A stretch of DNA of 64,000 nt, from assembly GCA_963675155.1 (NCBI GenBank), contig OY775912.1, positions 296,058-360,057 on the forward strand, written 5' to 3'. The notes under the pieces are model-generated. The model was given only the letters and a program-made list of their open reading frames with translations, was not told the DNA's origin and searched no databases. This document shows, in pieces, positions 524 through 36,938 of this stretch (its first letter is position 1; each line of letters opens with the position of its first letter). This DNA is from Anaerohalosphaeraceae bacterium. Lineage in GTDB: Bacteria; Planctomycetota; Phycisphaerae; Sedimentisphaerales; Anaerohalosphaeraceae. Both the position numbers and the translations under genes were made by a program.

Positions 524-3500
524 GTGTCGGCGGTTCACGAGACGGTCGAACTTCGTACATCTGACGGTGTTGAAGTGGATCAGGTGGATTATCAGTTGGG
601 TTTTCCCTGGCCGACGGTCGGCGATTCGGTGCCGGAGACAACGACGGGCAACGGGTATTCGATTCAGCTTGTCAATCCGGGTTTTGATAATGATTTAGCG
701 GGGAGTTGGCGCAGTGCGTATCCTACGCCGGGAGCGGCAAATTCGTCGGTTTATGCGGCGAACCTGCCGCCCGCCATTCGTCAGGTTCAACACAGCCCCA
801 AGCAGCCGACTTCGACTGATACCGTGATCGTGACGGCCAAAGTTACGGATCCTGACGGCGTTGATTTCGTTACACTCCAATTTCAACTTGTTGAGCCGGG
901 CAGTTATATCCCGATTCGATTTCCAAGTGGATCGGAGAATTCCGCTTATAGCAGCGGATGGTCTTCTACTCAAATGTATGACAACGGATTGAATGGCGAT
1001 CAATACGCCGGGGATTCGGTTTATTCCGTTCAGGTGCCGGCTTTTGTACAGAATCATCGCAATTTGATTCGCTATCGAATTGTTGCGCAAGACACCGGTG
1101 GTCGGAGCCTTACGGTTCCTTATGCCGATGATCCGCAGCCGAATTTTGCGTATTTTATTTACGATGGCGCCCCTGCCTGGAGCGGCGCTTTCAAATCCGG
1201 TGATCCGGTTGTGAGCTATGGCACGGATGTTATGAATTCGCTGCTGATTTTCCAGGTCATTTCCAGAGCGACGGATATTCAAACGTGCCATCTGGGTCCG
1301 GAAACGGAAGAGTATCTATATGCCGCCACGGTCATTTGTGACGGTGAAGTCTATGACCATGTTGGTTACCGAATCAAAGGCGCCTATTCTTTTAATATCG
1401 AGGGCAAGAAGAAATGGAAATTCAACTTTAATCGAGGCCATCATTTGCAGCTTCGTGACAACTATGGAAAAAAATACAACCAGAAGTGGGATAAAATTAA
1501 CCTCTCAACAGGAACCTGTCCATATTGGCAGGAGTTCGGCTGGGATGGCGGCATTGACGGGATGGTTCTCAATGAAGCGGCGTCCTTTAAGCTCTTTAAC
1601 ATGTCCGGTGTGCCGGCGTGTAATACCACCTTTCTCCATATGCGCGTTGTTGATGATTCCTCTGAGACGGGAGCCAATCAATATGCCGGTGATTTCTGGG
1701 GGCTTTATATCGGCGTTGAACAAATGGATACACGTTACCTAAAAGAACATGATCTGCCGGACGGAAATCTTTATAAAATGGCAGGCAGTCCTTTGGGCGC
1801 CAGCCAGGGGCCGACAGAGCAGGTGATAACTGATCCAAGTGACGCATGGGCTCTTATCAATGGTATCGAATCGCATCCATCCTTGTCCTGGTGGCAAAGC
1901 AATGTCAATTTGCAGGGATATTACGCATATCGTACCGTGTCCACGGTGGTGAACAATTCAGATCCGCGTGTGAACTGGAATTGCTATTATTTCCATGATC
2001 CGTTGGCTGACAAATGGTCTATCCTGCCGTGGGATTTGGATCTGACCTATGAATATGCCACTCACTACACGGACAATGAGCATTTCAGGTATGTTGTTGA
2101 AGACTATGCCCAGGCTGGTCTTGACTATAAAAACAGAGCCAGGGAGCTACAGGATTTGTTATTCAACGGTGAACAAGCTGCGCAGGTGATCGATGAACTC
2201 GCATCAGTTGTCAGCCATCCGTCAACTACGGAAAAATTTACCGAAGCCAACCGTGCCCGCTGGGAAAATGACCCCTGGGTTGTCAACAAGGGACGAGATG
2301 ATTTATTTTATATCAGCAGTTGGTGGGATCCGGATCATGATTTTGCGACGGTTGTGCAATACATGAAAGATTTTCTGACACCGGAAGGGATTGGCAATCA
2401 GTTTGGCGGCGGAAAACTGTCGGTGGATATCGCGGACTCGGCCATTCCCGATACGCCGACGATTAGCTATATCGGTGAACCCAATTATCCGGAAAACGAT
2501 TTGCGATTCCAGACCAGCCCGTTCAGTGATTCAACCGGTTCATTTGCGGCGATGAAATGGCGGATTGCCGAAGTCGAATCTTATATACAGCCGGAAATTC
2601 CGCCTACTTCAGGAGGAACGGTCGCGCTGATCCCTGAAGATTCGCAGTGGCAGTATTTCAAGGGGCAAGCTGAGCCTTCAAGCCCGACAACCCAATGGCG
2701 GCAGATATCCTTCAATGACAGTGGTTGGCTGAGTGGTTATACGCCGATTGGTTATGGCGTGACAGTTAATACCGAACTGACGGATATGCGGCGTATTAAT
2801 GGGGCTCAGGACGGCTACTCCAGTGTGTATCTGCGAAAGGAGTTTCAGATTACCTCACCGTCGGATGTTGAAACGTTGCGGTTAACATTAGGGTATGACG
2901 ACGGCTTTAATGTCTGGATCAACGGGACGCATCTGGATTCGGTCAACGTTGCCCAGGAAAATATGGCCTATGACAGCACTGCTTTAGTGTATGAGGGCTC
3001 CGGCCAGGCTTCAACACAGCTGACATATGAGAATCCGGAAACATTTCTGGTTTCCGGTAAGAATGTGATAGCGGTTCAGTTATTAAACTACGAAATAACA
3101 AGTTCTGATTCGTTTTTTGATCCGGTTTTAGACGCTGATATTGTCAGTGACCCCGGCAGCGGCGGATCGTATGACTTTGTTTATACCGGTCAGCCCGGCA
3201 AATACGAGATTGACGCGGTCTGGGAAAGTGACGAACTGGCGACGTTTACCAGTGAGGTTCAGATTCCTGCTGACGGCATCAAGCCGGGCAGGACGTATCG
3301 TGTCCGTTGTAAAATGAAGGACGATACCGGCCGCTGGAGCCATTGGTCCGTTCCGATTCAATTTGTCGCTGGTGAGGCAATTGATGCCGACATCCTGACC
3401 TATTTGCGGGTTACCGAACTGATGTATAACAATGATGATGCCGATTTTATCGAACTGAAAAACATCAGCAGCACGGCGACACTGGATTTAAGCGATGTCT

Positions 3501-3892
3501 CGATCACAAGCGGGGTGCAATTCAGTTTTGCCGGCAGTGACGTCACCACCCTTGCTCCGGGCGCCTTTGTCTTGGTGGTAAAAGATCAGGGTGATTTTGA
3601 AACGCAATACGGAACCGGACACAATAGTAAAATTGCGGGTGTGTTTGTTGACAGTAGTTTGTCCAACGGCGGCGAAACCGTCAAATTGGAAGATACATGG
3701 AATGGGACAATTGTTGAATTTGAATACAATGATAGTCGCGGCTGGCCGCTGGCGGCCGACGGTCCCGGTCACTCGCTGGTTCCCTTACCCTTGACGATCG
3801 AAGAGCAACCTCTGGGGACCCTTGATTTTGGCGGAAACTGGCGACAAAGTACCTATATCGGCGGTTCCCCCGGCGCCGAGTGTCGTTATTAA
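524..3892 (+). CDS. CotH-domain / lamin-tail-domain (LTD) protein, N-terminal portion. It begins mid-LTD and is probably continued by 3822..4865 after a frameshift
   Basis: CotH-like block (FWGLYIGVEQMD...GNLYKMAG). LTD-like segment near residue 950 (ELMYNNDDADFIELKN). Ends GGSPGAECRY* exactly where the GSPGA-P-VVINE linker of LTD proteins is expected. GTG start, no signal peptide; the first ~70 aa look like the C-terminal half of an LTD. Confidence 0.55.
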   Translation: MSAVHETVELRTSDGVEVDQVDYQLGFPWPTVGDSVPETTTGNGYSIQLVNPGFDNDLAGSWRSAYPTPGAANSSVYAANLPPAIRQVQHSPKQPTSTDTVIVTAKVTDPDGVDFVTLQFQLVEPGSYIPIRFPSGSENSAYSSGWSSTQMYDNGLNGDQYAGDSVYSVQVPAFVQNHRNLIRYRIVAQDTGGRSLTVPYADDPQPNFAYFIYDGAPAWSGAFKSGDPVVSYGTDVMNSLLIFQVISRATDIQTCHLGPETEEYLYAATVICDGEVYDHVGYRIKGAYSFNIEGKKKWKFNFNRGHHLQLRDNYGKKYNQKWDKINLSTGTCPYWQEFGWDGGIDGMVLNEAASFKLFNMSGVPACNTTFLHMRVVDDSSETGANQYAGDFWGLYIGVEQMDTRYLKEHDLPDGNLYKMAGSPLGASQGPTEQVITDPSDAWALINGIESHPSLSWWQSNVNLQGYYAYRTVSTVVNNSDPRVNWNCYYFHDPLADKWSILPWDLDLTYEYATHYTDNEHFRYVVEDYAQAGLDYKNRARELQDLLFNGEQAAQVIDELASVVSHPSTTEKFTEANRARWENDPWVVNKGRDDLFYISSWWDPDHDFATVVQYMKDFLTPEGIGNQFGGGKLSVDIADSAIPDTPTISYIGEPNYPENDLRFQTSPFSDSTGSFAAMKWRIAEVESYIQPEIPPTSGGTVALIPEDSQWQYFKGQAEPSSPTTQWRQISFNDSGWLSGYTPIGYGVTVNTELTDMRRINGAQDGYSSVYLRKEFQITSPSDVETLRLTLGYDDGFNVWINGTHLDSVNVAQENMAYDSTALVYEGSGQASTQLTYENPETFLVSGKNVIAVQLLNYEITSSDSFFDPVLDADIVSDPGSGGSYDFVYTGQPGKYEIDAVWESDELATFTSEVQIPADGIKPGRTYRVRCKMKDDTGRWSHWSVPIQFVAGEAIDADILTYLRVTELMYNNDDADFIELKNISSTATLDLSDVSITSGVQFSFAGSDVTTLAPGAFVLVVKDQGDFETQYGTGHNSKIAGVFVDSSLSNGGETVKLEDTWNGTIVEFEYNDSRGWPLAADGPGHSLVPLPLTIEEQPLGTLDFGGNWRQSTYIGGSPGAECRY

Positions 3893-4865
3893 TGAATTGA
3901 TGGCGCATACCGATTTCAGTGATCCGGTCAATTATCCGGACTATGACAGTAATGACTGGATCGAGCTGTACAATGCCGGTGACTCCTCTGTTAGTCTCAG
4001 TGGTAACTGGTATCTCAGCGACGATCCGGACGACCTCAAGAAATGGGCTCTTCCGAGCCGTACGCTGAATGCAGGTGGCCGGATCAGCGTTGATGAGATT
4101 ACCGGGTTCCATAGCCCGATCACCAGCGGCTTCGGTCTGGACAAAGCCGGCGAACAGATTTACCTGTCGTATTTGCCGGGCACCAGTGCTGACCGTGTGG
4201 TCGATTGCATTCAGTTCAAAGGACAGGCAAACAGTATTTCCTTAAGCCGTTATCCGGACGGCGGCAGCGATTGGTTCTCCGCCTCACCGGGTACACAGAA
4301 CGCAGCCAACACGAATCTTGTTGCCCATGTCGTGATCAGCGAGATCATGTACCATCCCACCGAGGGAACAACGAATGAGGAATATATCGAACTGTACAAC
4401 CCGACCGGTTCAAGTGTCAATTTATGGACCGATACTGGTTCGTGGGCACTGGATGGCGGCGTTGATTATGAATTCCCGCCCAACACGACGCTGTCCAGCG
4501 GCGATCGTTTTTTGGTGGTGGATTTTGACCCGGCGACAGAATCCACTCGTTTAGATGCTTTCAAAATCAGTTACACTAATACAAATTTGACAGCGGGTGT
4601 TAATATCTTCGGTCCCTGGAGTGGTAATCTTTCCAATAATGGTGAGCGAGTTACATTGGAAAGGCCGCAGGATTCCGATGATCCACTGGATCCGACGTCG
4701 ATCTCCTGGATCATTGTCGATGAGTGCATCTATAACGACTACTGGCCGTGGCCGACGGGAGCCGACGGTACGGGCACGGCACTGTCTCGCCAGTCATCGT
4801 CAGCGGCCGCTTCCGGAAACGATGCTGCTAACTGGCTGGCGCAGACTCCGACACCGGGATGGTAA
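3822..4865 (+). CDS. tandem lamin-tail-domain (LTD) module; likely C-terminal continuation (other frame) of 524..3892
   Basis: Two LTD signatures: VVINELMAH...WIELYNAGDSSVSLSGNWYLSDD and VVISEIMYHP...YIELYNPTGSSVNLW. C-terminal ...TPTPGW resembles the ...APTPGL end of 10668..15434. Confidence 0.55.
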   Translation: MILAETGDKVPISAVPPAPSVVINELMAHTDFSDPVNYPDYDSNDWIELYNAGDSSVSLSGNWYLSDDPDDLKKWALPSRTLNAGGRISVDEITGFHSPITSGFGLDKAGEQIYLSYLPGTSADRVVDCIQFKGQANSISLSRYPDGGSDWFSASPGTQNAANTNLVAHVVISEIMYHPTEGTTNEEYIELYNPTGSSVNLWTDTGSWALDGGVDYEFPPNTTLSSGDRFLVVDFDPATESTRLDAFKISYTNTNLTAGVNIFGPWSGNLSNNGERVTLERPQDSDDPLDPTSISWIIVDECIYNDYWPWPTGADGTGTALSRQSSSAAASGNDAANWLAQTPTPGW

Positions 4866-5328
4866 CTAGAAGTTCTGCCGCGTGTTGCAAATACGGTCAC
4901 ATCCCCGGGAGCGGTCCATGAGACCGTTTGGCGAGGAGTATTTAACCGTTTACTCTGAAATGAGTTACGTTGAATTCAGCAGAGAAGCAGAATTTTTGAA
5001 ACCCCTGCTAACAAATGGGGAAATCATCTGTTGCTTTTCGAATGACGCTGTAAGTCCTTGTCTTGTCGTTATTAGTCATTTATTTTAAAGTACTTACGGA
5101 ATTCCTTGACAGGCTGGAACCCCGTATCTCGCGGTTCAGTTTTTTCTCTGACAAATCTTCCCATCGGTTTCGGCGGCCTCCTGAACATTTTGATCATCCA
5201 CCCTAGAAAAATCCGATAAAGAGAAAAATCGTGAATTGTTTTGCACAAACTCCATATAAAATGGCTTTTCTATTACAGACGAGGCAATAAGATACACGCA
5301 TCACATTTTTGAACGAGGAATATGTATT

Positions 5329-5853
5329 TTGAACGAGGAACAAAAAAAAGATATCAAGGGGCCAGAATTTGTAAGGTTGCTGACGGCAAACCAAAACAGA
5401 ATCTCTGCCTATATTTCAGGACTTGTTCCTAATTTCAACGATGCGGATGATATCCTTCAGGAAACGACTGCTATGATGTGGGCAAGAGCGGAAGATTTCA
5501 CTTCCGGGACGGATTTTGCTGCCTGGGGAGTTCGGATTGCATATTATAAAATTCTTGATTACCGGAAAAAGAAGCGTCGCGAGGGGAAATTACTCTTTTC
5601 GGATGAAATGTTTAGCCGGATTGCAGAAAAGGCTCCGACCCGTGTTGGCAAAACAAATACTTATATTGAGAAGCTTCGAGAGTGTACCGACAAACTTCAG
5701 TTGCGGGATAAAGATCTTCTCAATTTACGTTACTCAAATGGCCTGAGCGTTAAAAAAATCTCACTTCGCATCAATTACAGTATTCGAACAGTTTATTATG
5801 ATTTGTCTCGTATTCATGGATTATTGTTAAATTGTATAGAGCGTCCTGAATAA
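5329..5853 (+). CDS. ECF-type sigma-70 family RNA polymerase sigma factor
   Basis: Region 2 (DADDILQETTAMMWARAEDF...FAAWGVRIAYYKILDYRKKK) and region 4 HTH (LRYSNGLSVKKISLRINYSIRTVYYDLSRI). TTG start embedded in a 14-bp direct repeat. Stop overlaps the anti-sigma start (ATGA). Confidence 0.85.
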   Translation: MNEEQKKDIKGPEFVRLLTANQNRISAYISGLVPNFNDADDILQETTAMMWARAEDFTSGTDFAAWGVRIAYYKILDYRKKKRREGKLLFSDEMFSRIAEKAPTRVGKTNTYIEKLRECTDKLQLRDKDLLNLRYSNGLSVKKISLRINYSIRTVYYDLSRIHGLLLNCIERPE

Positions 5854-7541
5854 TGAAAAGTTCAATTAAAGAAAAAACTCAGTTTCGCTGTTTACTCATG
5901 AAGTCGCTGGATGGGACTATCTCCAAAGAAGAAACGGCCGTGTTTAATCAACTCGTTTTCGATTTTCCGGATTTAGAGGAGTATTACTTTAAATGTATGG
6001 ATTTACATTCAGCGCTGGATGGTATTCAAACGCTTGCTGAAATGAGTCATTTGGATGTTGAAGTTGAGCAAAAAAACGCGTTTCTGAGTGAGTTGGGTGA
6101 ATATGAAAAGATTGCCCCCACAATGGAAGTTCTCTCTGCTCCGGAAGACAAGGAATGGTTTCCGGTTAAGAAAATAAGCTATGCAGGGTCCGTCCGGAAG
6201 ATTAACAAGTTTTCATTGGTGACTGCCGTTCTTGGCACGGCTGCGTTTATTCTGATGATTCTGTATGTCCGTATCGTCCCTAATGCTCCCTATCAAGTGG
6301 CGACCATTTGTGATTCCATTGACGCGGAGTGGTCTGCGGGCTTGCCGATTAGCTCGGGAACACGCATTTCTTCTGATTCCCGGCCCATTCAATTGACCCG
6401 GGGAATTATGAAATTGCAGACAGATAGTCAGGTTGAGATTACCTTAGAAGCACCGACAGAATTTTATTTCTCGTCAGACTATAACATGGTAATGAATTAC
6501 GGGAAACTGTTCGCACACGTTTCCAGGCAGGGATTGGGTTTTACAGTTGCGACGCCGAATTCGAGAATTACCGATTTAGGGACTGAATTTGGAGTTCTGA
6601 GTCAAATCGACGGAACCACCGAAGTACACATGTTCAAAGGGAAGGCGAACGTATTTGGGGGCGGTAAAAATCAGACGAAAACATCTCAAATTTTAACCGC
6701 CGGTTCGGCGGTAAGTGTGAGTCGGCATAATTCGACGGTACAAGAAATCTCGCTGGATAAAGGGGTTGTCGTTCGAGATATCATTGGTTCGGAAAATAAG
6801 TTGGCCTGGAGGGGGCAGACAACCCTTCGTTTTGCCGACTTGTTACTAGGCGGCAACGGATTTGGAACAGCGTCTTTGCCGAATATTGAATACGATCCTG
6901 CCGCAGGTACGGTGGTTTCAAGTGGTGTGGCTGGATACAGAAGCGGTCCGGGAAAGAGGAAGGCAATTTCACAAAGTCCCTATCTTGACAGTATCTTTGT
7001 CCCCGGCAGCGAGGATGGCGATGTTATTGTTAGCTCGCTTGGCCATAAATTTGGTGAATGTCCTGAAACGAGTGGCTTGTATTTCGCAAATGTTTTATGT
7101 CAAAAAAACTTTCTATTTTTTGATCCGATCCAACAAGTTTTTAAGCAGTCCAGACAGCAATTTGAAGATTCGGGATTTCTTTACCTGCACAGCAACGTCG
7201 GCCTGACGATTGACCTGAATGCGGTTCGACGGGCTGTTCCCGGCCTTTCTGTCTCTTCGTTCTCTGCTTTTGCCGGGATTATCCGTACCTGGAATGATAC
7301 GCCGGATAGTTCAGAGGCAGATGTATGGATTTTAGTGGATGGCCAGGTTCGGTCTTCTCGGAAAGCTCTTCGAGCTGACGAGGGATATGATATTCATATT
7401 GATATCACTGATGAGGATCGTTTCTTAACCTTGATTGTTACGGATGGCGGAAAAACTTATTCGGAGGGCTTCCCCGCCAATCATTATGATACGTGTGGTT
7501 TTGCCGAACCGGTTTTTAATTTGGTATTGCCTTCAAAATAA
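5853..7541 (+). CDS. FecR-family transmembrane anti-sigma factor with a C-terminal beta-sandwich sensor domain
   Basis: Single TM helix (FSLVTAVLGTAAFILMILYV). FecR-like block (GFTVATPNSRITDLGTEFGVLS...EVHMFKGKANVF). C-terminal domain shared with 24733..26466 (DVWILVDGQV...RFLTLIVTDG). Translationally coupled to the sigma factor. Confidence 0.75.
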   Translation: MKSSIKEKTQFRCLLMKSLDGTISKEETAVFNQLVFDFPDLEEYYFKCMDLHSALDGIQTLAEMSHLDVEVEQKNAFLSELGEYEKIAPTMEVLSAPEDKEWFPVKKISYAGSVRKINKFSLVTAVLGTAAFILMILYVRIVPNAPYQVATICDSIDAEWSAGLPISSGTRISSDSRPIQLTRGIMKLQTDSQVEITLEAPTEFYFSSDYNMVMNYGKLFAHVSRQGLGFTVATPNSRITDLGTEFGVLSQIDGTTEVHMFKGKANVFGGGKNQTKTSQILTAGSAVSVSRHNSTVQEISLDKGVVVRDIIGSENKLAWRGQTTLRFADLLLGGNGFGTASLPNIEYDPAAGTVVSSGVAGYRSGPGKRKAISQSPYLDSIFVPGSEDGDVIVSSLGHKFGECPETSGLYFANVLCQKNFLFFDPIQQVFKQSRQQFEDSGFLYLHSNVGLTIDLNAVRRAVPGLSVSSFSAFAGIIRTWNDTPDSSEADVWILVDGQVRSSRKALRADEGYDIHIDITDEDRFLTLIVTDGGKTYSEGFPANHYDTCGFAEPVFNLVLPSK

Positions 7542-29056: not shown

Positions 29057-30649
29057 TTATATATTGTTGATTTCTTTCCATGAAATGCTGAATTTAGCTA
29101 AATATTTCTTTAATCGGTCTGCATCATTGGGCCGGGCCTTTTGTGTTCTGGAGACATTGAAAAGCTGTCGTCCTGCCTCAGATAGACTTTTGGCTTTTGA
29201 ACATACTTTTATGACATGAGCCAGTTGCGGCCTGTCAAATTCGTCAATTTTAGCCAGTCTTTCTTTTCCGAGGAGTTTTTCCAAGAGATCGGTATTGTTA
29301 TCTTGTCTGGCCGATTGCCAGGATTTAAGGAGTCTCTGGATTTCTTCTTCCACAATATCTTCGCAGATTCGGCCTCCGGGGGCCAGTGTGGCCATGCGGG
29401 TAATCGCCCCGATCAGATCACGGAAATTCGATTTCCACATTGCTTGGCCCGACGTACTGAATGACAGGAAGCGTCTTTGAGCTTCTTTATTAAATCTGAC
29501 ATGCGTGCCGGCTTTACTGGCGTATTGATCCAGTTCGTACTGGATATTAGGCTCGATGTCTTCGCGGCGATCCTTCAAACCCGGCAGGTGAAACGTCCAC
29601 AGGTTGATTCTGGCCAGCAGGTCTTCGCGGAATTGCCCGGAATTGATATTGGCCTGTAAATCTCTATTGGTCCCACAGATCAGCTGAAAGTCGCTGCTGA
29701 CCTCTTTGTCAGATCCAACGGGCAGGAATTTCTTTTCTTCGATGGCTCGAAGCAGCATCGATTGCTCCTCAATGCCCAGTTCGCCAACTTCATCGAGGAA
29801 TAGAATACCGCCATCGGCTGTTTTTAAGAGACCCTCTCTGGCCTGTACAGCACCTGTAAACGCTCCTTTTGTATGCCCAAAGAGGGCTGACATCGCTGCG
29901 TCACCCCGAATGGTTGCACAGTTGACCTCTACAAAATCCCCTCTGAGTTTTTTGTGCGTCTTTTTAAGCTCAAAGATTCGTTGGGCTAGCTGGGATTTAC
30001 CGGCTCCGGTAGGTCCCATGAGCAGAATAGGATCTGTTGTCCGGGCTCCAACATGCTCGATCCGTTCAATCAGGGCATTGAAATTCTTATTCTTTGTTTG
30101 GATACCGGATTTTAAAAATGAGATATCGTCACACAACTGCTGCTTGAACCGCATCGCGATTCGGTCATACTTGGACAGGTCTAAATCGATAATTTGATAA
30201 CTGCCCGGTCCCTGATCTGTTTCTCGTTTTGGAGGGCTTGTTTGCAGCAGTCTGCCGGGGAAGTAGCGAGATTCGGTTAACAGGAACTCGCATATCTGAG
30301 AAACGTGTGTCCCTGTTGTGATATGGACTAAATACTCTTCATGGTCAGGGTCAAAGTCATAGTCTTTCGAAAAGTCATGGAGGACGCCGTACACCTCCTG
30401 GAAGTCCCAGGGATTATCCCAGTCAATGACATGAGGGACCACCTTTGTTTCCGGGGAAACAAGACCGATGTCTTTGATCACGCTTTTAGCGATCTTCTCG
30501 AATTTCCGTTGAAAGAGTAATTCAAAACGATCGACCAGCAGTTCTTCGTGTTGGCAGATTGAGACCGTTGGCCGCCAGAAGTTCCAGCGATCCGGTCCTT
30601 GCCCGCGGTCGAGATTAGGCCCCAACAATCCGATGACTACATTCTTCAT
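29057..30649 (-). CDS. rtcR: RtcR: sigma-54-dependent transcriptional activator with N-terminal CARF-like domain
   Basis: AAA+ sigma-54 interaction domain with GAFTGA (HTKGAFTGA), Walker A GPTGAGKS, ILFLDEVGEL. Long N-terminal non-receiver domain typical of RtcR CARF. Divergent from the rtcA/rtcB block. Confidence 0.85.
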   Translation of the reverse strand: MKNVVIGLLGPNLDRGQGPDRWNFWRPTVSICQHEELLVDRFELLFQRKFEKIAKSVIKDIGLVSPETKVVPHVIDWDNPWDFQEVYGVLHDFSKDYDFDPDHEEYLVHITTGTHVSQICEFLLTESRYFPGRLLQTSPPKRETDQGPGSYQIIDLDLSKYDRIAMRFKQQLCDDISFLKSGIQTKNKNFNALIERIEHVGARTTDPILLMGPTGAGKSQLAQRIFELKKTHKKLRGDFVEVNCATIRGDAAMSALFGHTKGAFTGAVQAREGLLKTADGGILFLDEVGELGIEEQSMLLRAIEEKKFLPVGSDKEVSSDFQLICGTNRDLQANINSGQFREDLLARINLWTFHLPGLKDRREDIEPNIQYELDQYASKAGTHVRFNKEAQRRFLSFSTSGQAMWKSNFRDLIGAITRMATLAPGGRICEDIVEEEIQRLLKSWQSARQDNNTDLLEKLLGKERLAKIDEFDRPQLAHVIKVCSKAKSLSEAGRQLFNVSRTQKARPNDADRLKKYLAKFSISWKEINNI

Positions 30650-30786
30650 GGTATATATATCCGTATATAGAATTATAATATATTATAAGTATAAGTGTCG
30701 GCTCATTTATGGTCAATGCTTAATTGATAATTTTTATGCCATTCTAAATAAAGGAGTTATGTTCATTTTTGCTTTTATTTAAAAGT

Positions 30787-30802
30787 CTGGCACGCAGGTT
30801 GT
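30787..30802 (+). promoter_or_regulatory. sigma-54 (-24/-12)-type promoter candidate, oriented toward the tRNA-like element / SPFH / tRNA array / rtcAB
   Basis: TGGCACG-CAGG-TTGTA versus consensus TGGCACG-N4-TTGCW; the -12 element is GT instead of GC. Lies ~140 bp from the rtcR start, on the opposite strand. Confidence 0.45.
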
Positions 30803-31000
30803 ACATAGTAGATCAAGTAATTAACGCTCTTATGAAAATTAAAGATGAAGTTTCCGCCGGGCCAGCGGCATACCAGTGACAGCCATGCTGTTTCATTGCG
30901 TATGTACCGTGAGTGGGTTCTAACGAAGGTGGAACTATTCGAGCGGCGAGAATTGGAAAATGCGACCAATGTCAATTCTTTCGATTCCCGCATCGGATCC

Positions 31001-31085
31001 CAATGGTTAGCTCAGAGGGTAGAGCATCGGGCCGTTAACCCGAAGTCGTGGGTTCGATTCCCACACCGACCGCCGCGAGAGCGGC
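31001..31085 (+). ncRNA. tRNA-like element with canonical D-arm, anticodon arm (GTT, Asn-type) and T-arm but no good 7-bp acceptor stem, followed by a GNRA-capped hairpin
   Basis: TAGCTCAGAGGGTAGAGC D-arm. TCGGG-CCGTTAA-CCCGA anticodon arm. GTGGG-TTCGATT-CCCAC T-arm. The 5' strand CAATGGT pairs only 4/7 with the 3' strand ACCGACC. Then GCCGC-GAGA-GCGGC. Confidence 0.4.
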
Positions 31086-31448
31086 TCAAAGAAGGGCTCG
31101 AAGGAAACATTTGGTCTATCTGGCAGTTGACAGGTTTTTCTGACTCACCTCGTTGGCCTGTCAACACCATTTGTAAACGCTCTGCAGTATGCGGATACCG
31201 CTTACTTCTGGCCAAGAGCAAAGACGTCGATGACGAACAAGCAATGACGGATTTCGCTGGTAATAGGAAATCTGAAATTGCGACCTTCCGAATCGCCTCT
31301 TACCTTGTTCAAAGTGAACTTAAGCATGCTCCGCGTGAAAGATGGGGCAATAGTCAAATGTTTCCTGAAAGCCTCTTATGACAAATGCCCGGCGATAAAT
31401 GAAAGAATAAATACAAGGTGAGAAAATAGAATAAAAAGGAGAATTAAA

Positions 31449-32552
31449 ATGAGTATTAAAACGATCAAAATCCATTCGTATGAAAAGGGATTCCACTTCC
31501 GTAACGGTGAGCTGATTGGTTTGCTGGACGAAGGTCGCCACTGGTTTCTGAAACCTGTTGCGAAGGACCAGGTTTATGTATCAAACCTGCGAGATCCTTG
31601 GATTCGCCATAACGACCTTGACTTGATTGTTAAGTCCGGCGTTTTGGAAGGCAAGGCTCAGGTTCTGGACCTTCAGGACTTCCAACGCGGGTTGGTCTGG
31701 GTGGATGGTCGTTTTGAAGCGATTGTGTCCGGCGGAATCTATGCGATCTGGACGACGCATCGTGCCGTGAAAGTGGAAATCATTGATGCACGGGACGTTC
31801 GGTTTAACCACCGTGACATCAGCGTTATCCTGAAATCCTCAGGTGCCAAAGAGCTTTTGGATGAGAACACCGTCGCTGAAGATCACGTGGGTGTTTACTT
31901 CCAGAATGGCCGCTATGTGGAAACGCTGGATGCCGGGCGCTATGTGTTCTGGAAAGGCATTGAGAAAGTACATGTTTTTCAGGTGGATCTGTCCGAGTTG
32001 TCTTTGGATATCTCCGGCCAGGAAATCATGACGGCGGATAAAGTGACTTTGCGTATGAATGCGGTGGTTGCTTACACCGTTCAGGATGCTGAAAAGGCCG
32101 TTCGTTCGACAACGGATGTCAAGCAGTCGCTGTACCGCGAAACTCAGTTGGCCTTGCGAGCGATTGTTGGGTCACGTCAGCTGGATGAATTGCTGGCTGA
32201 TAAGGATGCTCTGGCTGATGAACTACAAGGTCAGATTGCAGAGCGAGCCGAGTCATTCGGTTTGAAGCTGACAGCTCTGGGAATTCGAGATGTGATCCTG
32301 CCCGGTGAAATGAAGAATCTGTTGAATAAGGTGACTGAGGCTAAAAAGGCGGCAGAAGCGAACCTGATTGCTCGCAGAGAAGAGACCGCCGCGATGCGTT
32401 CTCAGGCAAACACAGCCAAGTTGCTGGAAAACAACCCTGTATTGATGCGGCTGCGTGAACTGGAAGTACTGGAAAACATCTCAACCAATTCCAAGTTGAA
32501 TGTGGTGCTGGGTGAAAAAGGGCTGGCCGATAGAGTGGTCAACCTGTTGTAG
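31449..32552 (+). CDS. SPFH/band-7 (stomatin/flotillin-like) domain protein
   Basis: SPFH-like core (LRMNAVVAYTVQDAEKAVRSTTDVKQSLYRETQLALRAIVGSRQLDELLADKDALADEL...LKLTALGIRDVILPGEM) and coiled-coil tail. RBS aaaaaggag. Confidence 0.7.
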   Translation: MSIKTIKIHSYEKGFHFRNGELIGLLDEGRHWFLKPVAKDQVYVSNLRDPWIRHNDLDLIVKSGVLEGKAQVLDLQDFQRGLVWVDGRFEAIVSGGIYAIWTTHRAVKVEIIDARDVRFNHRDISVILKSSGAKELLDENTVAEDHVGVYFQNGRYVETLDAGRYVFWKGIEKVHVFQVDLSELSLDISGQEIMTADKVTLRMNAVVAYTVQDAEKAVRSTTDVKQSLYRETQLALRAIVGSRQLDELLADKDALADELQGQIAERAESFGLKLTALGIRDVILPGEMKNLLNKVTEAKKAAEANLIARREETAAMRSQANTAKLLENNPVLMRLRELEVLENISTNSKLNVVLGEKGLADRVVNLL

Positions 32553-32618: not shown

Positions 32619-32692
32619 TGCTCCGTGGCCCAACTGGAAGAGGCAGCGGGTTTTGAACCCGTTCGTTGCAGGTTCGATTCCTGCCGGAGCTG
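32619..32692 (+). tRNA. tRNA-Gln (anticodon TTG)
   Basis: Manual fold: acceptor TGCTCCG/CGGAGCT (U1.U72 mismatch). Anticodon arm GCGGG-TTTTGAA-CCCGT. T-arm GCAGG-TTCGATT-CCTGC. Confidence 0.65.
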
Positions 32693-32697
32693 AATGA

Positions 32698-32772
32698 CTG
32701 GATGTAGGGCAGCCTGGGTAGCCTACTCGCCTTGGAAGCAAGACGTCGTTGGTTCGAATCCAACCATCCAGA
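32698..32772 (+). tRNA. tRNA-Pro (anticodon TGG)
   Basis: Acceptor CTGGATG/CATCCAG perfect. D-arm GGGCAGCCTGGGTAGCCT. Anticodon loop CTTGGAA. T-arm GTTGG-TTCGAAT-CCAAC. Confidence 0.7.
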
Positions 32773-32774
32773 CT

Positions 32775-32847
32775 GTGACCGTAGCTTAATTGGTAAAGCA
32801 CCAGATTGTGATTCTGGGGAGTACGGGTTCGAGTCCCGCCGGTCACC
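32775..32847 (+). tRNA. tRNA-His (anticodon GTG); no encoded G-1
   Basis: Acceptor GTGACCG/CGGTCAC, discriminator C. Anticodon arm CCAGA-TTGTGAT-TCTGG. T-arm ACGGG-TTCGAGT-CCCGC. The nucleotide at -1 is T. Confidence 0.65.
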
Positions 32848-32867
32848 CTTTGAAAAGAGAATGTTGA

Positions 32868-32938
32868 GCGTTGACGGTATAATGGCAACATACGGGCTTG
32901 CCAAGTCTGTGATGGGAGTTCGAATCTCCCTCGACGCA
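32868..32938 (+). tRNA. tRNA-Gly (anticodon GCC)
   Basis: Acceptor GCGTTGA/TCGACGC. Anticodon loop TTGCCAA; the anticodon stem has two G-U pairs. T-arm GGGAG-TTCGAAT-CTCCC. Confidence 0.6.
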
Positions 32939-32941
32939 ATC

Positions 32942-33012
32942 GGCCTCGTCGTCTAGTGGCAGGACACCAGATTTTCGATCTGTGAACGTGAGTTTGATTC
33001 TCACCGAGGCTA
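32942..33012 (+). tRNA. tRNA-Glu (anticodon TTC)
   Basis: D-arm TCGTCTAGTGGCAGGAC typical of tRNA-Glu. Anticodon loop TTTTCGA. T-arm GTGAG-TTTGATT-CTCAC. Acceptor GGCCTCG/CGAGGCT (G1.U72). Confidence 0.6.
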
Positions 33013-33018
33013 TTAATC

Positions 33019-33092
33019 GGCTCTGTAGCCCAATTGGCAGAGGCGGCGGACTTAGAATCCGCTCAGTGTAGGTTCGACTCCTACCGGGGCTA
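33019..33092 (+). tRNA. atypical tRNA: Gln-like body with anticodon TAG (would read CUA Leu codons) and a short class-I variable loop
   Basis: D-arm GCCCAATTGGCAGAGGC and T-arm GTAGG-TTCGACT-CCTAC closely resemble the tRNA-Gln at 32619. Anticodon arm GCGGA-CTTAGAA-TCCGC. 5-nt variable loop, unlike class-II tRNA-Leu. Acceptor has three G-U pairs. Confidence 0.45.
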
Positions 33093-33097
33093 GTAAA

Positions 33098-33169
33098 GGA
33101 ACGGTAGCTGAGATGGTTTAGCGAAAGCCTGAAAAGGTTCAGACGTTGGTTCGAACCCATCCCGTTCCA
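33098..33169 (+). tRNA. tRNA-Phe-like (anticodon GAA) with weak anticodon stem and one T-stem mismatch; possibly a pseudo-tRNA
   Basis: Acceptor GGAACGG/CCGTTCC perfect. Loop CTGAAAA. The anticodon stem AAAGC/GGTTC has only 3 Watson-Crick pairs. Confidence 0.45.
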
Positions 33170-33254
33170 CTTAATGGAAATATAATTTGAATAACCTAAT
33201 TAAGATGGATACAATCTCATAGACAACAATAAAGGAGTTTAAAGGAATACAGCA

Positions 33255-34274
33255 ATGATTACGATTGATGGATCATTTGGAGAAGGTGGCGGACAAATTC
33301 TTCGCAGCAGCGTGGCATTGTCGCTGATTACCGGGAAACCATTTCAAATCGAGAATATTCGAGCCGGACGTAAAAAGCCCGGTTTGATGCGGCAGCACTT
33401 AACCGCAGTTAATGCGGCCGTTGAAGTGGGTGCCGCTGATGTGAGCGGTAATGCGATTGGATCGCAGAGCTTGACCTTCGCACCGAAAGCAATTAATGCG
33501 GGTACTTACAAGTTTGCGGTTGGGACTGCAGGCAGCACAACGCTTGTGCTGCAAACAATTCTGCCAGCTTTGCTGATTGCTGATAAACCCTCTGAGATTA
33601 CATTGGAAGGTGGAACACACAATCCGTTTGCTCCGCCATTCAGCTTCCTGGAAAAGGTGTTCGTTCCTGTTCTGAATAAAATGGGACCTGAGATCAGCCT
33701 GGACCTTCAACGCCCGGGTTTTTATCCTGCCGGTGGTGGATGCTTTACGGTCAAGATTCAACCTAAAGCGAAGTTGGACAGAATTGACATCATCGAGCGA
33801 GGTGAGATTGTCAGCCGATCTGCTAAGGCCTATGTGGCTTATCTGTCGGAGAAAATCGCCAGCCGGGAACTGAGAGTGATACGGAACAAGCTTTCGTGGG
33901 ACGAAAAGGACACGGAGATTATCAAAGTACGGGATTCAAATGGTCCGGGTAATATCGTGACGGCAGAGATTCAAAGTGAGAATATTACTGAGCTATTTAC
34001 TGGTTTTGGAATGAAGGGTTTGCCTGCGGGTAAAGTGCCGCTGGGGATGGTCGATGAAGCTCGGGAGTACTTGGCCGCAGGGGTTCCTGTGGCAAGACAC
34101 CTGGCCGATCAGTTGATGATTCCGATGGCCATGGCTGGCGGTGGAACGTTTAGAACGCTGCCGTTGACGCTGCATTCGACGACGAATATCGAGATTCTGA
34201 AAAAGTTCTTGGATGTTCAGGTTGAAGTCACCAAACTGGAAAAAGATTTTTATGAAATCAATATCATCGCGTGA
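33255..34274 (+). CDS. rtcA: RNA 3'-terminal phosphate cyclase RtcA
   Basis: N-terminus ITIDGSFGEGGGQILRSSVALSLITGKPFQIENIRAGR, typical of RtcA. ~339 aa. RBS aaaggag. Confidence 0.9.
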   Translation: MITIDGSFGEGGGQILRSSVALSLITGKPFQIENIRAGRKKPGLMRQHLTAVNAAVEVGAADVSGNAIGSQSLTFAPKAINAGTYKFAVGTAGSTTLVLQTILPALLIADKPSEITLEGGTHNPFAPPFSFLEKVFVPVLNKMGPEISLDLQRPGFYPAGGGCFTVKIQPKAKLDRIDIIERGEIVSRSAKAYVAYLSEKIASRELRVIRNKLSWDEKDTEIIKVRDSNGPGNIVTAEIQSENITELFTGFGMKGLPAGKVPLGMVDEAREYLAAGVPVARHLADQLMIPMAMAGGGTFRTLPLTLHSTTNIEILKKFLDVQVEVTKLEKDFYEINIIA

Positions 34275-35704
34275 TGATTGACGATGGAGATAATGAAATG
34301 AAAACACGACAATTAGCGAATCTTGGAATCCCTCGCGGGGAAACCATGAAGATGACTCAGGACGCGATTAAGCAATGGCTTCAATCGTATGACGGCTATC
34401 TGAATAATGCGGCGATCTGCCAGAAGATCAATGACCTGGCCAAGAATCCATCTGAATATCTGGAAGATGAGCACTTTGGTCAAATTGCTAAAATACTGAA
34501 TGAAAGCAAGGAGGCACGAGCGACTTATGTCGATCGCCCAGAGCCGGCTTACTACCAGCGGTGGGGTTCGGATCTGGAAGATAAGGCGATTGAGCAGATG
34601 GAAAATGCGTGCAAACTGCCGATTTCCATTTGTGGTGCCTTGATGCCGGATGCTCATGTGGGTTATGGCTTGCCGATCGGCGGCGTTCTGGCAACTCAAG
34701 ATGCGGTTATCCCATACGCCGTTGGGATGGACATTGCCTGCCGTATGAAAATGACGGTGTTGGATTTGCCGGTTAATGCGTTGACGGGACAAGCGGATCG
34801 TTTGAAAAATGCTCTTGAGACTGAAACGCGTTTTGGTGTTGGGGCATCGTTCAAAAAATACCGTGAACATGACGTGATGGATGAAGACTGGTCGTTTAGC
34901 CCGATTGTTAATCGATTTAAGGACAAAGCCTGGAGTCAGCTTGGAACCAGCGGAAGCGGAAACCATTTTGCCGAATTTGGAACATTGATGCTGGATCAGG
35001 ATGATCTTGGGCTTAAGGCCGGGACTTATCTAGCCTTGCTGAGTCATAGTGGAAGCCGGGGGATTGGAAACGAAATCGCTACGTACTTCAGCAAGCTGGC
35101 AGTCCAGAAGCATCCGGAATTGCCAAAAGAGCTGATGCATCTGTCATGGTTGGATACCGATAGTGCCGAGGGCCAGGAATACTGGCAGGCGATGGAACTG
35201 ATGGGACGCTATGCGGCGGCCAATCATAAGCTGATCCATCGGCATATTGCCAAAAACCTGAACGTTAAGGTGCTTTTGGATGTGGAAAACCACCATAACT
35301 TTGCCTGGAAAGAAGTGCATGACGGGCAGGAAGTAATTGTTCACCGTAAGGGTGCGACGCCTGCCGATGACGGTGCGCTTGGAATTATTCCCGGATCAAT
35401 GGGGACATCCGGCTATGTGGTTCGCGGAAAAGGTAAGCCCGAATCGCTAAACTCTGCTTCTCATGGAGCAGGCCGGAAGATGAGCCGTAAGAAAGCCAAA
35501 GAGACATTTACCTGGCATGATGCCAAGAAATTTCTCAAGGATCGCGGTGTTCAGCTGATCTCTGCAGGACTGGATGAGGTCCCAATGGCGTATAAAGATA
35601 TCGAGGAAGTGATGGCTGCTCAGAATGATCTGGTTCAGCCAATCGCTCGCTTCGATCCAAAAATCGTAAAAATGGCCCCAGCCGGAGAAAGACCGGAGGA
35701 TTAA
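34271..35704 (+). CDS. rtcB: RNA-splicing ligase RtcB (3'-phosphate/5'-hydroxyl RNA ligase); the called ORF has an N-terminal extension
   Basis: RtcB blocks (MPDAHVGYGLPIGGV, HNFAWKEVHDGQEVIVHRKGATPA, IIPGSMGTSGYVVRG, SASHGAGR). Start overlaps the rtcA stop (ATGA). Confidence 0.9.
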   Translation: MMIDDGDNEMKTRQLANLGIPRGETMKMTQDAIKQWLQSYDGYLNNAAICQKINDLAKNPSEYLEDEHFGQIAKILNESKEARATYVDRPEPAYYQRWGSDLEDKAIEQMENACKLPISICGALMPDAHVGYGLPIGGVLATQDAVIPYAVGMDIACRMKMTVLDLPVNALTGQADRLKNALETETRFGVGASFKKYREHDVMDEDWSFSPIVNRFKDKAWSQLGTSGSGNHFAEFGTLMLDQDDLGLKAGTYLALLSHSGSRGIGNEIATYFSKLAVQKHPELPKELMHLSWLDTDSAEGQEYWQAMELMGRYAAANHKLIHRHIAKNLNVKVLLDVENHHNFAWKEVHDGQEVIVHRKGATPADDGALGIIPGSMGTSGYVVRGKGKPESLNSASHGAGRKMSRKKAKETFTWHDAKKFLKDRGVQLISAGLDEVPMAYKDIEEVMAAQNDLVQPIARFDPKIVKMAPAGERPED

Positions 35705-35706
35705 CA

Positions 35707-36279
35707 ATGTGTCATTTTCTAACAGCTGTATTATCAGCAGACGCTGATATTGAAAATTGTAGTTTAATTGCAGAGAAATTCCAGCGAATTTTTGAACCTG
35801 TTTCAAATCAACACGTTCAAAAACAGCTGGAACCTAAGATGAAATACTATTGCATGACAAAGGGTAATTGTGATTGCGGCACAATATGGGGCAAGGGGAA
35901 CGGATCTGGAGATATCAAGAAGAAAATGAATCGTAAACTTAAAAAGCTTCGAAATAAAGGATGGTCTGAAGCTAAAATAAAACGATTTATAGAAAGCAAA
36001 AATCAGGCTTCTCAAGGTGATCAAGCAAGTCTCAAGAAACAACATGTAGATTGTGAAACGTTAGCACAGCAATGGATATCATTTGTTTCGGAAATCATTG
36101 ACCAAGGTTTATCAGACTATATGGGGATTCTTCTGCATTGGTACTCCGGAAATCTTGAAAAGGAAAAAGTTGATATCCAGCAAATAGAGAAAATTACGTT
36201 GAGTGAGCTCACCCCAACCTTTATATGGAAAGCCAAAGAAGACGTGCTGTATATCTTTAAGAAAAATAGGGGTGTATAG
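35707..36279 (+). CDS. hypothetical Cys- and Lys-rich protein (unknown family), translationally coupled between rtcB and prfH
   Basis: ATG 3 nt after the rtcB stop. Stop TAG overlaps the GTG start of the next gene (tagtg). CMTKGNCDCG cluster and basic stretch KKKMNRKLKKLRNKGW. Locally lower GC than the neighbours. Confidence 0.5.
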   Translation: MCHFLTAVLSADADIENCSLIAEKFQRIFEPVSNQHVQKQLEPKMKYYCMTKGNCDCGTIWGKGNGSGDIKKKMNRKLKKLRNKGWSEAKIKRFIESKNQASQGDQASLKKQHVDCETLAQQWISFVSEIIDQGLSDYMGILLHWYSGNLEKEKVDIQQIEKITLSELTPTFIWKAKEDVLYIFKKNRGV

Positions 36280-36938
36280 TGACAAATTGGTTACAAGTTA
36301 CCTCAGGGCGTGGACCAGATGAATGCTGTTGGGTTGTGGCCAGGGTTGTCGAGGCAATCACTCAAGATGCGTCGGCAAATGGCTATAACTTAAATGTATT
36401 GGAAGTCGTGCCGGGAAGTAAGCCGGATTTGTTTAAGTCAGCACTGCTTTCTATTGAAGGCGACGGTTTATCTGAATTCTTGTCTCAATGGGAAGGGACG
36501 ATTCAGTGGATTGGAAAAAGTCAATTCCGTCCCAAGCATAAGCGGAAAAACTGGTTTGTGGGTGTCACATCTTATGAAGCTCCTGAAGAAGTTGATTATA
36601 GCTGCAGTGAATTTCGATTTGAAAGCATGCGATCATCCGGTCCCGGCGGTCAGCACGCTAACAAAATCGAATCGGCCGTGCGTGTCACCCATATGCCCAC
36701 GGGAATTAATGCCATCGCACAGGAAGAACGATCCCAGCATATGAATCGAAAATTGGCATTAAGCCGGTTGCATAAAAAACTCCAGCAACAAAAGCAGAGT
36801 ACTGAAATGCAGCTCCAGCAGGAACGATGGGATGAACATAATGCCTTGGAAAGAGGCAACCCCATCCGAGTGTATGAAGGTCTCAAATTCAAGCTAAAAA
36901 GAATAGACAAAAATAAAGAGTTAAGGATTATTCGATGA
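36279..36938 (+). CDS. prfH: PrfH-type (RF-H) peptide chain release factor homolog with GGQ motif, lacking the RF domain 1
   Basis: SSGPGGQHANKIESAVRVTH GGQ domain. N-terminal SGRGPDECCWVV...GTIQWIG...RPKHKRKNWF pattern characteristic of the RF-H family. ~219 aa. Encoded immediately after rtcB, as in described rtcB-prfH pairs. Confidence 0.75.
   Translation: MTNWLQVTSGRGPDECCWVVARVVEAITQDASANGYNLNVLEVVPGSKPDLFKSALLSIEGDGLSEFLSQWEGTIQWIGKSQFRPKHKRKNWFVGVTSYEAPEEVDYSCSEFRFESMRSSGPGGQHANKIESAVRVTHMPTGINAIAQEERSQHMNRKLALSRLHKKLQQQKQSTEMQLQQERWDEHNALERGNPIRVYEGLKFKLKRIDKNKELRIIR

Follow-up and report, generated by a model that had tools for sequence, protein, structure and literature searches.

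The stretch of DNA analysed here (the window) comprises 64,000 nucleotides (nt) of contig OY775912.1 from an Anaerohalosphaeraceae bacterium and carries at positions 31001-31072 of the forward strand a domain resembling a transfer RNA (tRNA), followed on the same strand by the gene of slipin, an SPFH/Band-7 protein. Comparison with related loci indicates that this element is a tRNA shape mimic under selection and not a tRNA gene or a pseudogene. The tRNA-like fold is the middle domain of a conserved RNA of ~530 nt (30847-31377), with the slipin gene directly downstream of this RNA on the same strand. Most likely the element functions as the RNA partner of slipin in a tRNA-damage response, and it is probable that the conserved tRNA-like domain, as a part of the larger RNA, acts as the RNA subunit of slipin in a complex. 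The element had already been pointed out in an earlier note on this DNA, in which the slipin partner gene and the much longer conserved RNA were overlooked.

In the window the D, anticodon and T arms of the element are intact. The D stem (GCTC/GAGC) is followed by an anticodon stem (TCGGG/CCCGA) bearing the loop CCGTTAA with the triplet GTT and by a T stem (GTGGG/CCCAC) with the loop TTCGATT. The acceptor strands CAATGGT (31001-31007) and ACCGACC (31065-31071) are paired at four of seven positions (three Watson-Crick pairs and one T-G pair), and position 33 is occupied by C in place of the near-universal U. The Rfam tRNA model (RF00005) matches 31005-31067 of the forward strand with 53.2 bits (E 1.3e-8 over the whole 64-kb window); the match spans model positions 5-66 only, the outer acceptor stem being absent. 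The minimum free energy (MFE) fold of 31001-31086 is a cloverleaf plus a hairpin (z = -2.4). This hairpin, HP1 (GCCGC-GAGA-GCGGC, 31072-31085, forward strand), has a GAGA tetraloop. The Rfam match and the MFE fold bear out the proposal of the earlier note that the D, anticodon (GTT) and T arms of a structured mimic fold as in a tRNA, and the tetraloop hairpin is present where it had been described. ARAGORN, suggested in the same note as a check, calls seven tRNAs at 32619-33170 of the window and makes no call at 31001-31072, of tRNA-Asn or of any other kind. The 3' end of the element is situated 377 nt upstream of the Band_7 gene.

Close relatives of the slipin protein number in the thousands, most of them from Planctomycetota. 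Eighty genomic loci encoding such relatives were fetched (designated below by L numbers), so that together with the window 81 loci were examined. A blastn search with the window leader revealed the tRNA-like segment at the matching relative position in 27 loci. A covariance model, R1, was built from 26 copies of the element (alignment A4); it assigns 63-93 bits to syntenic copies, 83.8 bits to the window element and at most 64 bits to ordinary tRNAs. The element was found 350-810 nt upstream of the orthologous slipin start in 65 loci as well as in the window, and further upstream in three more loci. Among the loci with enough upstream sequence the R1 search found it absent in only three; nine loci are too short upstream to be judged, which leaves ~71 assessable ones, and in ~95% of these the element and the slipin gene co-occur. 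The element was never seen far from the slipin gene, apart from second high-scoring copies located downstream of slipin in L016 (9282-9358, 76.5 bits) and L024 (10356-10431, 81 bits). RtcA/RtcB are adjacent to slipin in only 6 of the 81 loci, the window included, and RtcR is present in only four, so that more than 90% of loci have the element without RtcR. Because the Rtc genes adjoin it in so few loci, the conserved pair consists of the tRNA-like RNA and slipin and not of the RNA and RtcR. A sensor feeding the CARF domain of RtcR, as considered in the earlier note, is not favoured by this distribution, whereas the comparison of related genomes proposed there turned out positive, with 65 further syntenic loci and covarying anticodon and T stems.

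The anatomy of the tRNA-like domain was derived from the 26-sequence alignment (pairing and covariation) and from 69 copies (loop, acceptor and entropy counts). The D stem is invariant; pairing amounts to 98.5% in the anticodon stem, where four pairs are changed on both sides, and to 99.2% in the T stem, with three pairs of this kind. The elbow nucleotides U8, A14, G18, G19, T54, T55, C56 and A58 are invariant in the alignment and have near-zero entropy in the 69 copies. In the acceptor, pair 7-66 is present in all 26 sequences, 6-67 in 25 and 5-68 in 23, with compensatory changes; pair 4-69 is found in 17 and pair 3-70 in 10 of them, and pairs 2-71 (4/26) and 1-72 (3/26) are at chance level. 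The contiguous acceptor helix has 3-5 base pairs (bp) in 55 of 69 copies (3 bp in 23, 4 bp in 16 and 5 bp in 16) and 7 bp in a single one. Per-column entropy amounts to 1.7-2.0 bits at positions 1-4, 34-36 and 71-73 and is about zero in the D and T arms. The anticodon loop consists of 7 nt in 66 of 69 copies. These 66 loops contain 31 different central triplets, including ATG, ACT, AGT, ATT and TTA, with rare A34 types present, and the triplet differs even between close relatives. Position 32 is a pyrimidine in all 66 loops, position 37 is a purine in 63 (95%) and position 38 is A in 56, and position 33 is occupied by T (43), C (15), G (5) or A (3). N-CCA at positions 73-76, the expected tRNA 3' end, occurs in about half of the copies and is absent in the window clade.

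The element retains the parts of the L-shape, namely the D arm, the T arm, the elbow, the 5-bp anticodon stem and the 7-nt loop. The features of translation are lost: the anticodon is free, U33 is not fixed, and the acceptor is short with an unconstrained 5' strand. The comparison explains the peculiarities of the window copy: as the 69 copies share them, its apparent defects are family traits and its "Asn" identity is accidental. The alignment indicates that the short acceptor of 3-5 bp is a conserved property of the family and not a defect. The 4/7 pairing given in the earlier note is correct, but its wording "no acceptor stem" is not, since 3-5 bp are conserved with compensatory changes at 5-68, 6-67 and 7-66; the "Asn-type" label reflects an incidental triplet, one of the 31 found among orthologous copies.

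The tRNA-like domain is flanked by structured RNA on both sides, and the whole window leader folds better than shuffled sequence (z = -3.8). The upstream domain (~95 nt, 30847-30940, forward strand) was deduced by RNAalifold on 35 loci and from the window fold. Its outer helix is formed by UUCCGCC (30852-30858) with GGUGGAA (30928-30934). The conserved CCAGCGG pairs with CCG-NNNN-UGG, which is followed by the conserved single-stranded GGGUUCUAACGA, and the stretch GGGUUCUGACGA stays single-stranded. In most of the 69 loci the upstream motif is located 31-48 nt 5' of the tRNA-like element. A local hairpin reading of CCG-NNNN-YGG was tried and abandoned; the long-range pairing (CCA/UGG and CGG/CCG) is preferred because A to G in column 38 tracks U to C in column 107 in 7 of the 35 sequences with no exceptions. 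Among the 35 sequences 88.8% of cells are paired (30-46% with the partners slid by 1-3 columns), the covariation is 0.45 (at most 0.12 when slid) and none of 500 shuffles reaches the score, the structure having been predicted from the same alignment on which these values were obtained.

The downstream domain (~290 nt, 31092-31377, forward strand) is defined by the window MFE fold and by the consensus of 61 leaders, which comprises 70 pairs. It is held together by the long-range helices AAG/CUU, GGCU/AGCC and CUAU/AUAG and by a 13-bp helix of AGGAAACAUUUGG (31102-31114) with UCAAAUGUUUCCU (31354-31366). The coordinates given for the window are those of its own fold, as the projection of the consensus is partly misaligned. 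To limit circularity, 31 leaders served for predicting the structure, which was then tested on the remaining 30. In this held-out half 84.8% of cells are paired, compared with 34-44% for slid partners; the covariation equals 0.47 against at most 0.15, 61 of 70 pairs show changes on both sides, and 0 of 300 shuffles reach the score. No Rfam family was found for either flanking domain in the window or in L009, at the gathering threshold or at E<=10.

In the 61 loci a median of 87 nt separates the end of the downstream domain's closing helix from the slipin ATG, and in 47 of them a T-rich tract comes after the helix; the tracts are short and irregular. The RNA may end there, or transcription may be attenuated at this tract. 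A hairpin at the position of HP1 is kept in relatives with different stems (90% paired, 59 cells changed on both sides). In relatives HP1 often has a 7-nt CUNNNAA loop similar to an anticodon loop, which is not found in the window clade. Many loci (e.g. L024, L048, L060, L063 and L068) have a second conserved hairpin (HP2), GGGCGCG-AAA-GCGUCC, ~25-55 nt after the element; it is often followed by ACCA and then resembles an acceptor minihelix with a CCA end, and it too is absent in the window clade. As to whether HP1 mimics an anticodon loop, 14 of 23 seven-nt hairpin loops fit Y-U-NNN-R-A/C, a soft result because the automatic caller confused HP1 with HP2. An open reading frame (ORF) of 178 amino acids (30845-31381) spans the structured leader; it has no Pfam match and overlaps the covarying RNA, and is treated as probably spurious.

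The leader belongs to an operon that holds the element, the slipin gene, tRNA genes, rtcA, rtcB and prfH. Divergent from it is rtcR (29057-30649, reverse strand), coding for a CARF-type RtcR N-domain and a sigma-54 AAA+ activator (Pfam RtcR 4.9e-81, Sigma54_activat 5.8e-50). The forward-strand site TGGCACGCAGGTTGT (30788-30802), the single match to TGGCAC-N5-TTGY in the 64-kb window, resembles a sigma-54 promoter, and its promoter activity is predicted from this consensus. The loci L002 and L010, which like the window carry RtcR, likewise have this consensus ahead of the leader, in the interval separating it from rtcR. The earlier note had correctly recognised this site and placed the element right after it; the actual distance is ~200 nt. 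Some 640 nt with no credible gene precede the slipin gene (31449-32552, forward strand; Pfam Band_7 1.5e-31). The subsequent genes are all on the forward strand. Seven tRNA genes (Gln, Pro, His, Gly, Glu, Leu and Phe; 32619-33170) were called by ARAGORN and match Rfam at full length with 48.7-65.1 bits. This cluster is situated between the slipin gene and rtcA, and the closest relative, L001, has none there. Next come rtcA (33255-34274; Pfam RTC 1e-82), rtcB (34271-35704; Pfam RtcB 6.9e-90), an ORF of 190 amino acids (35707-36279) with no Pfam or NCBIfam match, and prfH (36279-36938; TIGR03072 release_prfH, 257.7 bits at a cut-off of 166.65). L001 has no room for the 190-residue ORF, the RtcB match ending there at 11703 and the PrfH match starting at 11760. 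The pairing of RtcB with PrfH is joined here with rtcA, rtcR, the slipin gene and tRNA genes in one operon. A Pfam scan of nine real ORFs surrounding the element gave no TROVE/Rsr domain.

Immediately 5' of the element lies a decayed extra tRNA-like element (30941-31002, forward strand). It aligns to an intact 82-nt cloverleaf with a 7-bp acceptor stem, which occupies the corresponding place directly 5' of the element in L001 (7480-7561; called by ARAGORN, fold z = -3.9). L001 is the closest relative of the window, with slipin 81% identical. Compared with L001 the window copy lacks 19 nt and carries mutations in its T stem, and it folds no better than shuffled sequence (z = -0.7). The 3' tRNA remnant noticed previously at 30981-31002 is real and, according to this alignment, is the 3' part of the decayed accessory copy. 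In L002 and L078, too, ARAGORN finds tRNAs just 5' of the element.

Most loci have 20-40 tRNA genes on the same strand directly upstream of the unit, in a conserved order that ends in tRNA-Cys (ARAGORN): Phe-Glu-Pro-Ile-Lys ... His-[gap]-Trp-Thr-Arg-Arg-Arg-Cys. Such arrays were seen, upstream of ~7400, in L003, L005, L006, L008, L009, L028-L031, L037, L039, L042, L043, L052, L055, L058, L079 and others. The gap of 650-800 nt between tRNA-His and tRNA-Trp contains an HNH endonuclease gene in the two loci checked (L009, 6337-6999; L052, 4881-5354). Several tRNAs of the arrays are 90-95 nt long or have undetermined "anticodons" of 2-4 nt according to ARAGORN (L003 1611-1705, L005 2960-3054, L009 3954-4046, L028 3876-3969 and others); these may contain introns or be degenerate. 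L003 and L005 are ~50 kb apart on contig CAWDRV010000004.1, so that two complete copies of array, element and slipin gene are present in one genome. L081, a 94-kb contig (IMG/VR UViG_3300007072_000340), has a 35-tRNA array, the element (85 bits) and the slipin gene at 908-7101. The contig is classified as viral and may represent a prophage or a mobile island, or have been misclassified. Genes for tRNAs are often found 3' of slipin as well, for example in the window (the seven described above), L002, L017, L028, L068 and L078.

Residues 175-352 of slipin match stomatin (5e-24). Its AlphaFold model (predicted local distance difference test, pLDDT, 80) consists of three five-stranded beta units, an SPFH domain and long helices, i.e. 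a stomatin/HflK-like fold with an extra beta-rich N-terminal extension. No obvious hydrophobic membrane segment was noticed in the sequence, judged by eye. SPFH proteins form large rings or cages. A ribonucleoprotein model is invited because an apparently soluble SPFH protein adjoins a dedicated RNA. In this genome the unit stands behind the putative RtcR-dependent sigma-54 promoter together with genes of RNA repair and ribosome rescue (rtcA, rtcB and prfH) and seven tRNAs, and from this placement next to the regulator and the repair genes we infer that it would be made upon sensing of RNA damage. An acceptor of 3-5 bp would probably allow neither RNase P cleavage, by analogy with YrlA, nor aminoacylation, and the domains would stay joined. 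The RNA would be a subunit of a complex with oligomeric slipin, as Y RNA is for Ro60 and vault RNA for the vault. Its tRNA-shaped surface may recruit tRNA-recognising factors, e.g. repair enzymes or anticodon nucleases, or compete for them in a tRNA-damage or translational-stress response.

Several points weigh against this interpretation. Only the conserved adjacency of the two suggests that the RNA is co-transcribed with slipin and bound by it. The equation of the element with b7a-tRNA, a predicted class discussed below, relies on a second-hand description. The T-rich tract in 47 of 61 loci could mean that the RNA ends before slipin or that its transcription is attenuated, which fits a cis role as well. 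Such a role would make the ~530-nt structure a 5'-untranslated region or attenuator of the slipin gene, in which the tRNA-like domain senses, for example by being bound or cut by a tRNA-recognising factor, and thereby chooses between termination and read-through. This would suit the constant location of the RNA on the same strand directly upstream of slipin, the median of 87 nt between the closing helix and ATG, the T-rich tract, and the fact that, save for the second copies in L016 and L024, the element is never far from slipin. However, no conserved structure covers the Shine-Dalgarno sequence or the start, and the stretch between the closing helix and ATG varies in both length and sequence. 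Three elaborate covarying domains exceed the needs of known attenuators, and the T tracts are short and irregular. A regulatory leader is considered an unlikely explanation, though the most probable of the rivals. Still less probable is a bait or decoy for anticodon nucleases, a decoy having been among the alternatives of the earlier note; here toxins would cleave the anticodon loop of the element. In favour of this, tRNA fragments ending in a cyclic phosphate activate RtcR, YrlA has been suggested to act as a decoy (both PMC7790460), and the preservation of loop geometry along with a triplet that varies among close relatives could result from diversifying selection. On the other hand, lack of constraint explains random triplets equally well, and the absence of RtcR from more than 90% of loci means that feeding RtcR is not the general function. 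Known anticodon nucleases are moreover sequence-specific, and the flanking domains would be left unexplained.

The position of the element behind a long same-strand tRNA array in most relatives, together with N-CCA at the expected tRNA 3' end in about half of the copies, raises the question of processing punctuation, that is, of a tRNA-like fold serving as an RNase P/RNase Z signal that separates the slipin mRNA from the upstream array or leader RNA. It is very improbable in view of the acceptor length (of 69 copies, 55 have 3-5 bp and a single one reaches 7 bp), and the invariant D arm, the conserved anticodon arm and the two flanking domains are not explained by it. The GTT triplet in a 7-nt loop and the strong Rfam tRNA score might suggest a decaying or 5'-damaged tRNA-Asn, the latter having been put forward in the earlier note, or a genuine tRNA-Asn with misjudged ends. 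Practically nothing is left of this idea: ARAGORN makes no call, C occupies position 33, the acceptor is kept short, with covariation, over 69 copies, 31 triplets occur, and the syntenic position is fixed, with D and T arms that do not vary even between divergent lineages. Equally implausible is a Y RNA of the YrlA type that would have the gene of its Ro60 partner at another locus. The occurrence of a tRNA-like module in an rtcBA operon under RtcR control does recall rsr-yrlBA-rtcBA of Salmonella, but the Rfam matches at E<=10 include neither YrlA nor a Y RNA, no TROVE/Rsr domain is encoded in the operon ORFs, and the element has the normal tRNA order with a complete anticodon arm. Covariation, triplet diversity, tRNA order and the lack of a Y RNA match thus led to the rejection of a pseudogene, a true tRNA-Asn and YrlA alike.

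The interpretation of the RNA as a slipin subunit can be extended, tentatively and with considerable doubt, to a wider picture. In it the b7a-type fold would be the centre of an undescribed three-domain RNA of ~530 nt (~110 covarying or conserved bp, no Rfam family), a dedicated subunit of a cytosolic vault-like SPFH assembly. As a portable accessory to systems of tRNA supply and repair, the unit would cap mobile arrays of 20-40 genes in most Planctomycetota and be wired to RtcR/sigma-54 with RtcA, RtcB and PrfH in a minority that includes the window. Long mobile tRNA arrays and SPFH-linked RNA-repair modules, treated separately in the literature compared, are joined by these loci. A cultured carrier, Lacipirellula limnantheis I41 (L052; NZ_CP036339.1, ~5.960-5.962 Mb), was identified.

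The arrays upstream of the element are the L-arrays of Santamaria-Gomez et al. 2021. L-arrays are found in Planctomycetes, are linked to HNH and are co-induced with rtcB under translational stress in Anabaena (Santamaria-Gomez et al. 2021, PMC8421152). The related loci are alike in having 20-40 same-strand tRNAs with an embedded HNH gene, and an array of at least 20 densely packed same-strand tRNAs plus HNH, the L-array feature, was found in many of them (e.g. L003, L005, L008, L009, L052 and L081). The window differs: its operon has no HNH gene and only a seven-gene tRNA cluster, which is located downstream of the slipin gene. Neither a Band-7/slipin gene nor a terminal tRNA-like element is mentioned in PMC8421152 or in Tran et al. 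2015 (PMC4758250). Literature searches on tRNA genes with slipin, or on RtcR with a tRNA-like RNA, gave nothing relevant beyond Hughes 2020 and Chen 2014.

The roles of the non-coding RNAs of bacterial RNA-repair operons (Y RNAs with Ro60, the predicted b7a-tRNA with Band-7) are still sought. The abstract of Burroughs and Aravind from 2016 reportedly speaks of "SPFH/Band-7 modules with ... a novel tRNA-like molecule". As described second-hand, these authors predicted b7a-tRNA as an unvalidated non-coding RNA with a strong resemblance to an authentic tRNA, encoded in some bacteria beside Band-7 and RtcB (Wang et al., bioRxiv 10.1101/312249), and this preprint was the only source in which the term "b7a-tRNA" surfaced in our literature searches. 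By that description the window locus fits gene for gene. A tRNA-like non-coding RNA adjoining an SPFH/Band-7 gene is present in the window and 65 further loci; an operon encoding RtcB is present in the window and in only 6 of 81 loci overall. Matched in this second-hand way, the element would be a member of the predicted, unvalidated b7a-tRNA class. The acceptor of 3-5 bp, the randomness of the anticodon, the pair of flanking domains and the prevailing location at the end of long tRNA arrays free of Rtc genes go beyond that description, and relative to it the two covarying flanking domains and the location of the unit at the end of HNH-bearing tRNA arrays in most relatives appear to be new. 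The prediction is thereby given a testable anatomy: borders, a covariance model, a short acceptor, a free anticodon and flanking domains.

YrlA, with which the earlier note had compared the element, has a permuted layout with its ends in a Ro60-binding helix, lacks an anticodon arm and has Rsr as its partner (Chen 2014, PMC4201824); RNase P cleaves only the YrlA version whose acceptor stem has 7 bp (PMC4201824). Both RNAs are tRNA mimics with conserved D and T arms, both occur in RtcR-regulated rtcBA operons, both have a short acceptor, in YrlA of most species too short for RNase P and in the element probably so, and both are proposed cofactors of a scaffold protein in RNA repair or decay. The element differs in its normal order of acceptor, D, anticodon, variable, T and acceptor parts, in its full anticodon arm and in its slipin partner. 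A cmscan search of 30500-31600 at E<=10 returned no Y RNA or YrlA family (only tRNA and three chance-level matches), the presence of a YrlA model in Rfam 15 not being confirmed. The comparison made in the note is apt as regards an RtcR/sigma-54-controlled rtcBA operon lacking Rsr, and the tRNA-like module of YrlA is the nearest functional analogy; identity with YrlA does not follow. For the combination of slipin with an RNA the system to be compared is the vault ribonucleoprotein, which contains the major vault protein with its SPFH-like shoulder, vault RNA and the TROVE protein TEP1. Should slipin, stomatin-like and apparently soluble, assemble with the RNA into a particle, it would be a bacterial parallel to the Ro-Y RNA and vault ribonucleoproteins and could explain how tRNAs are protected or replaced under nuclease attack.

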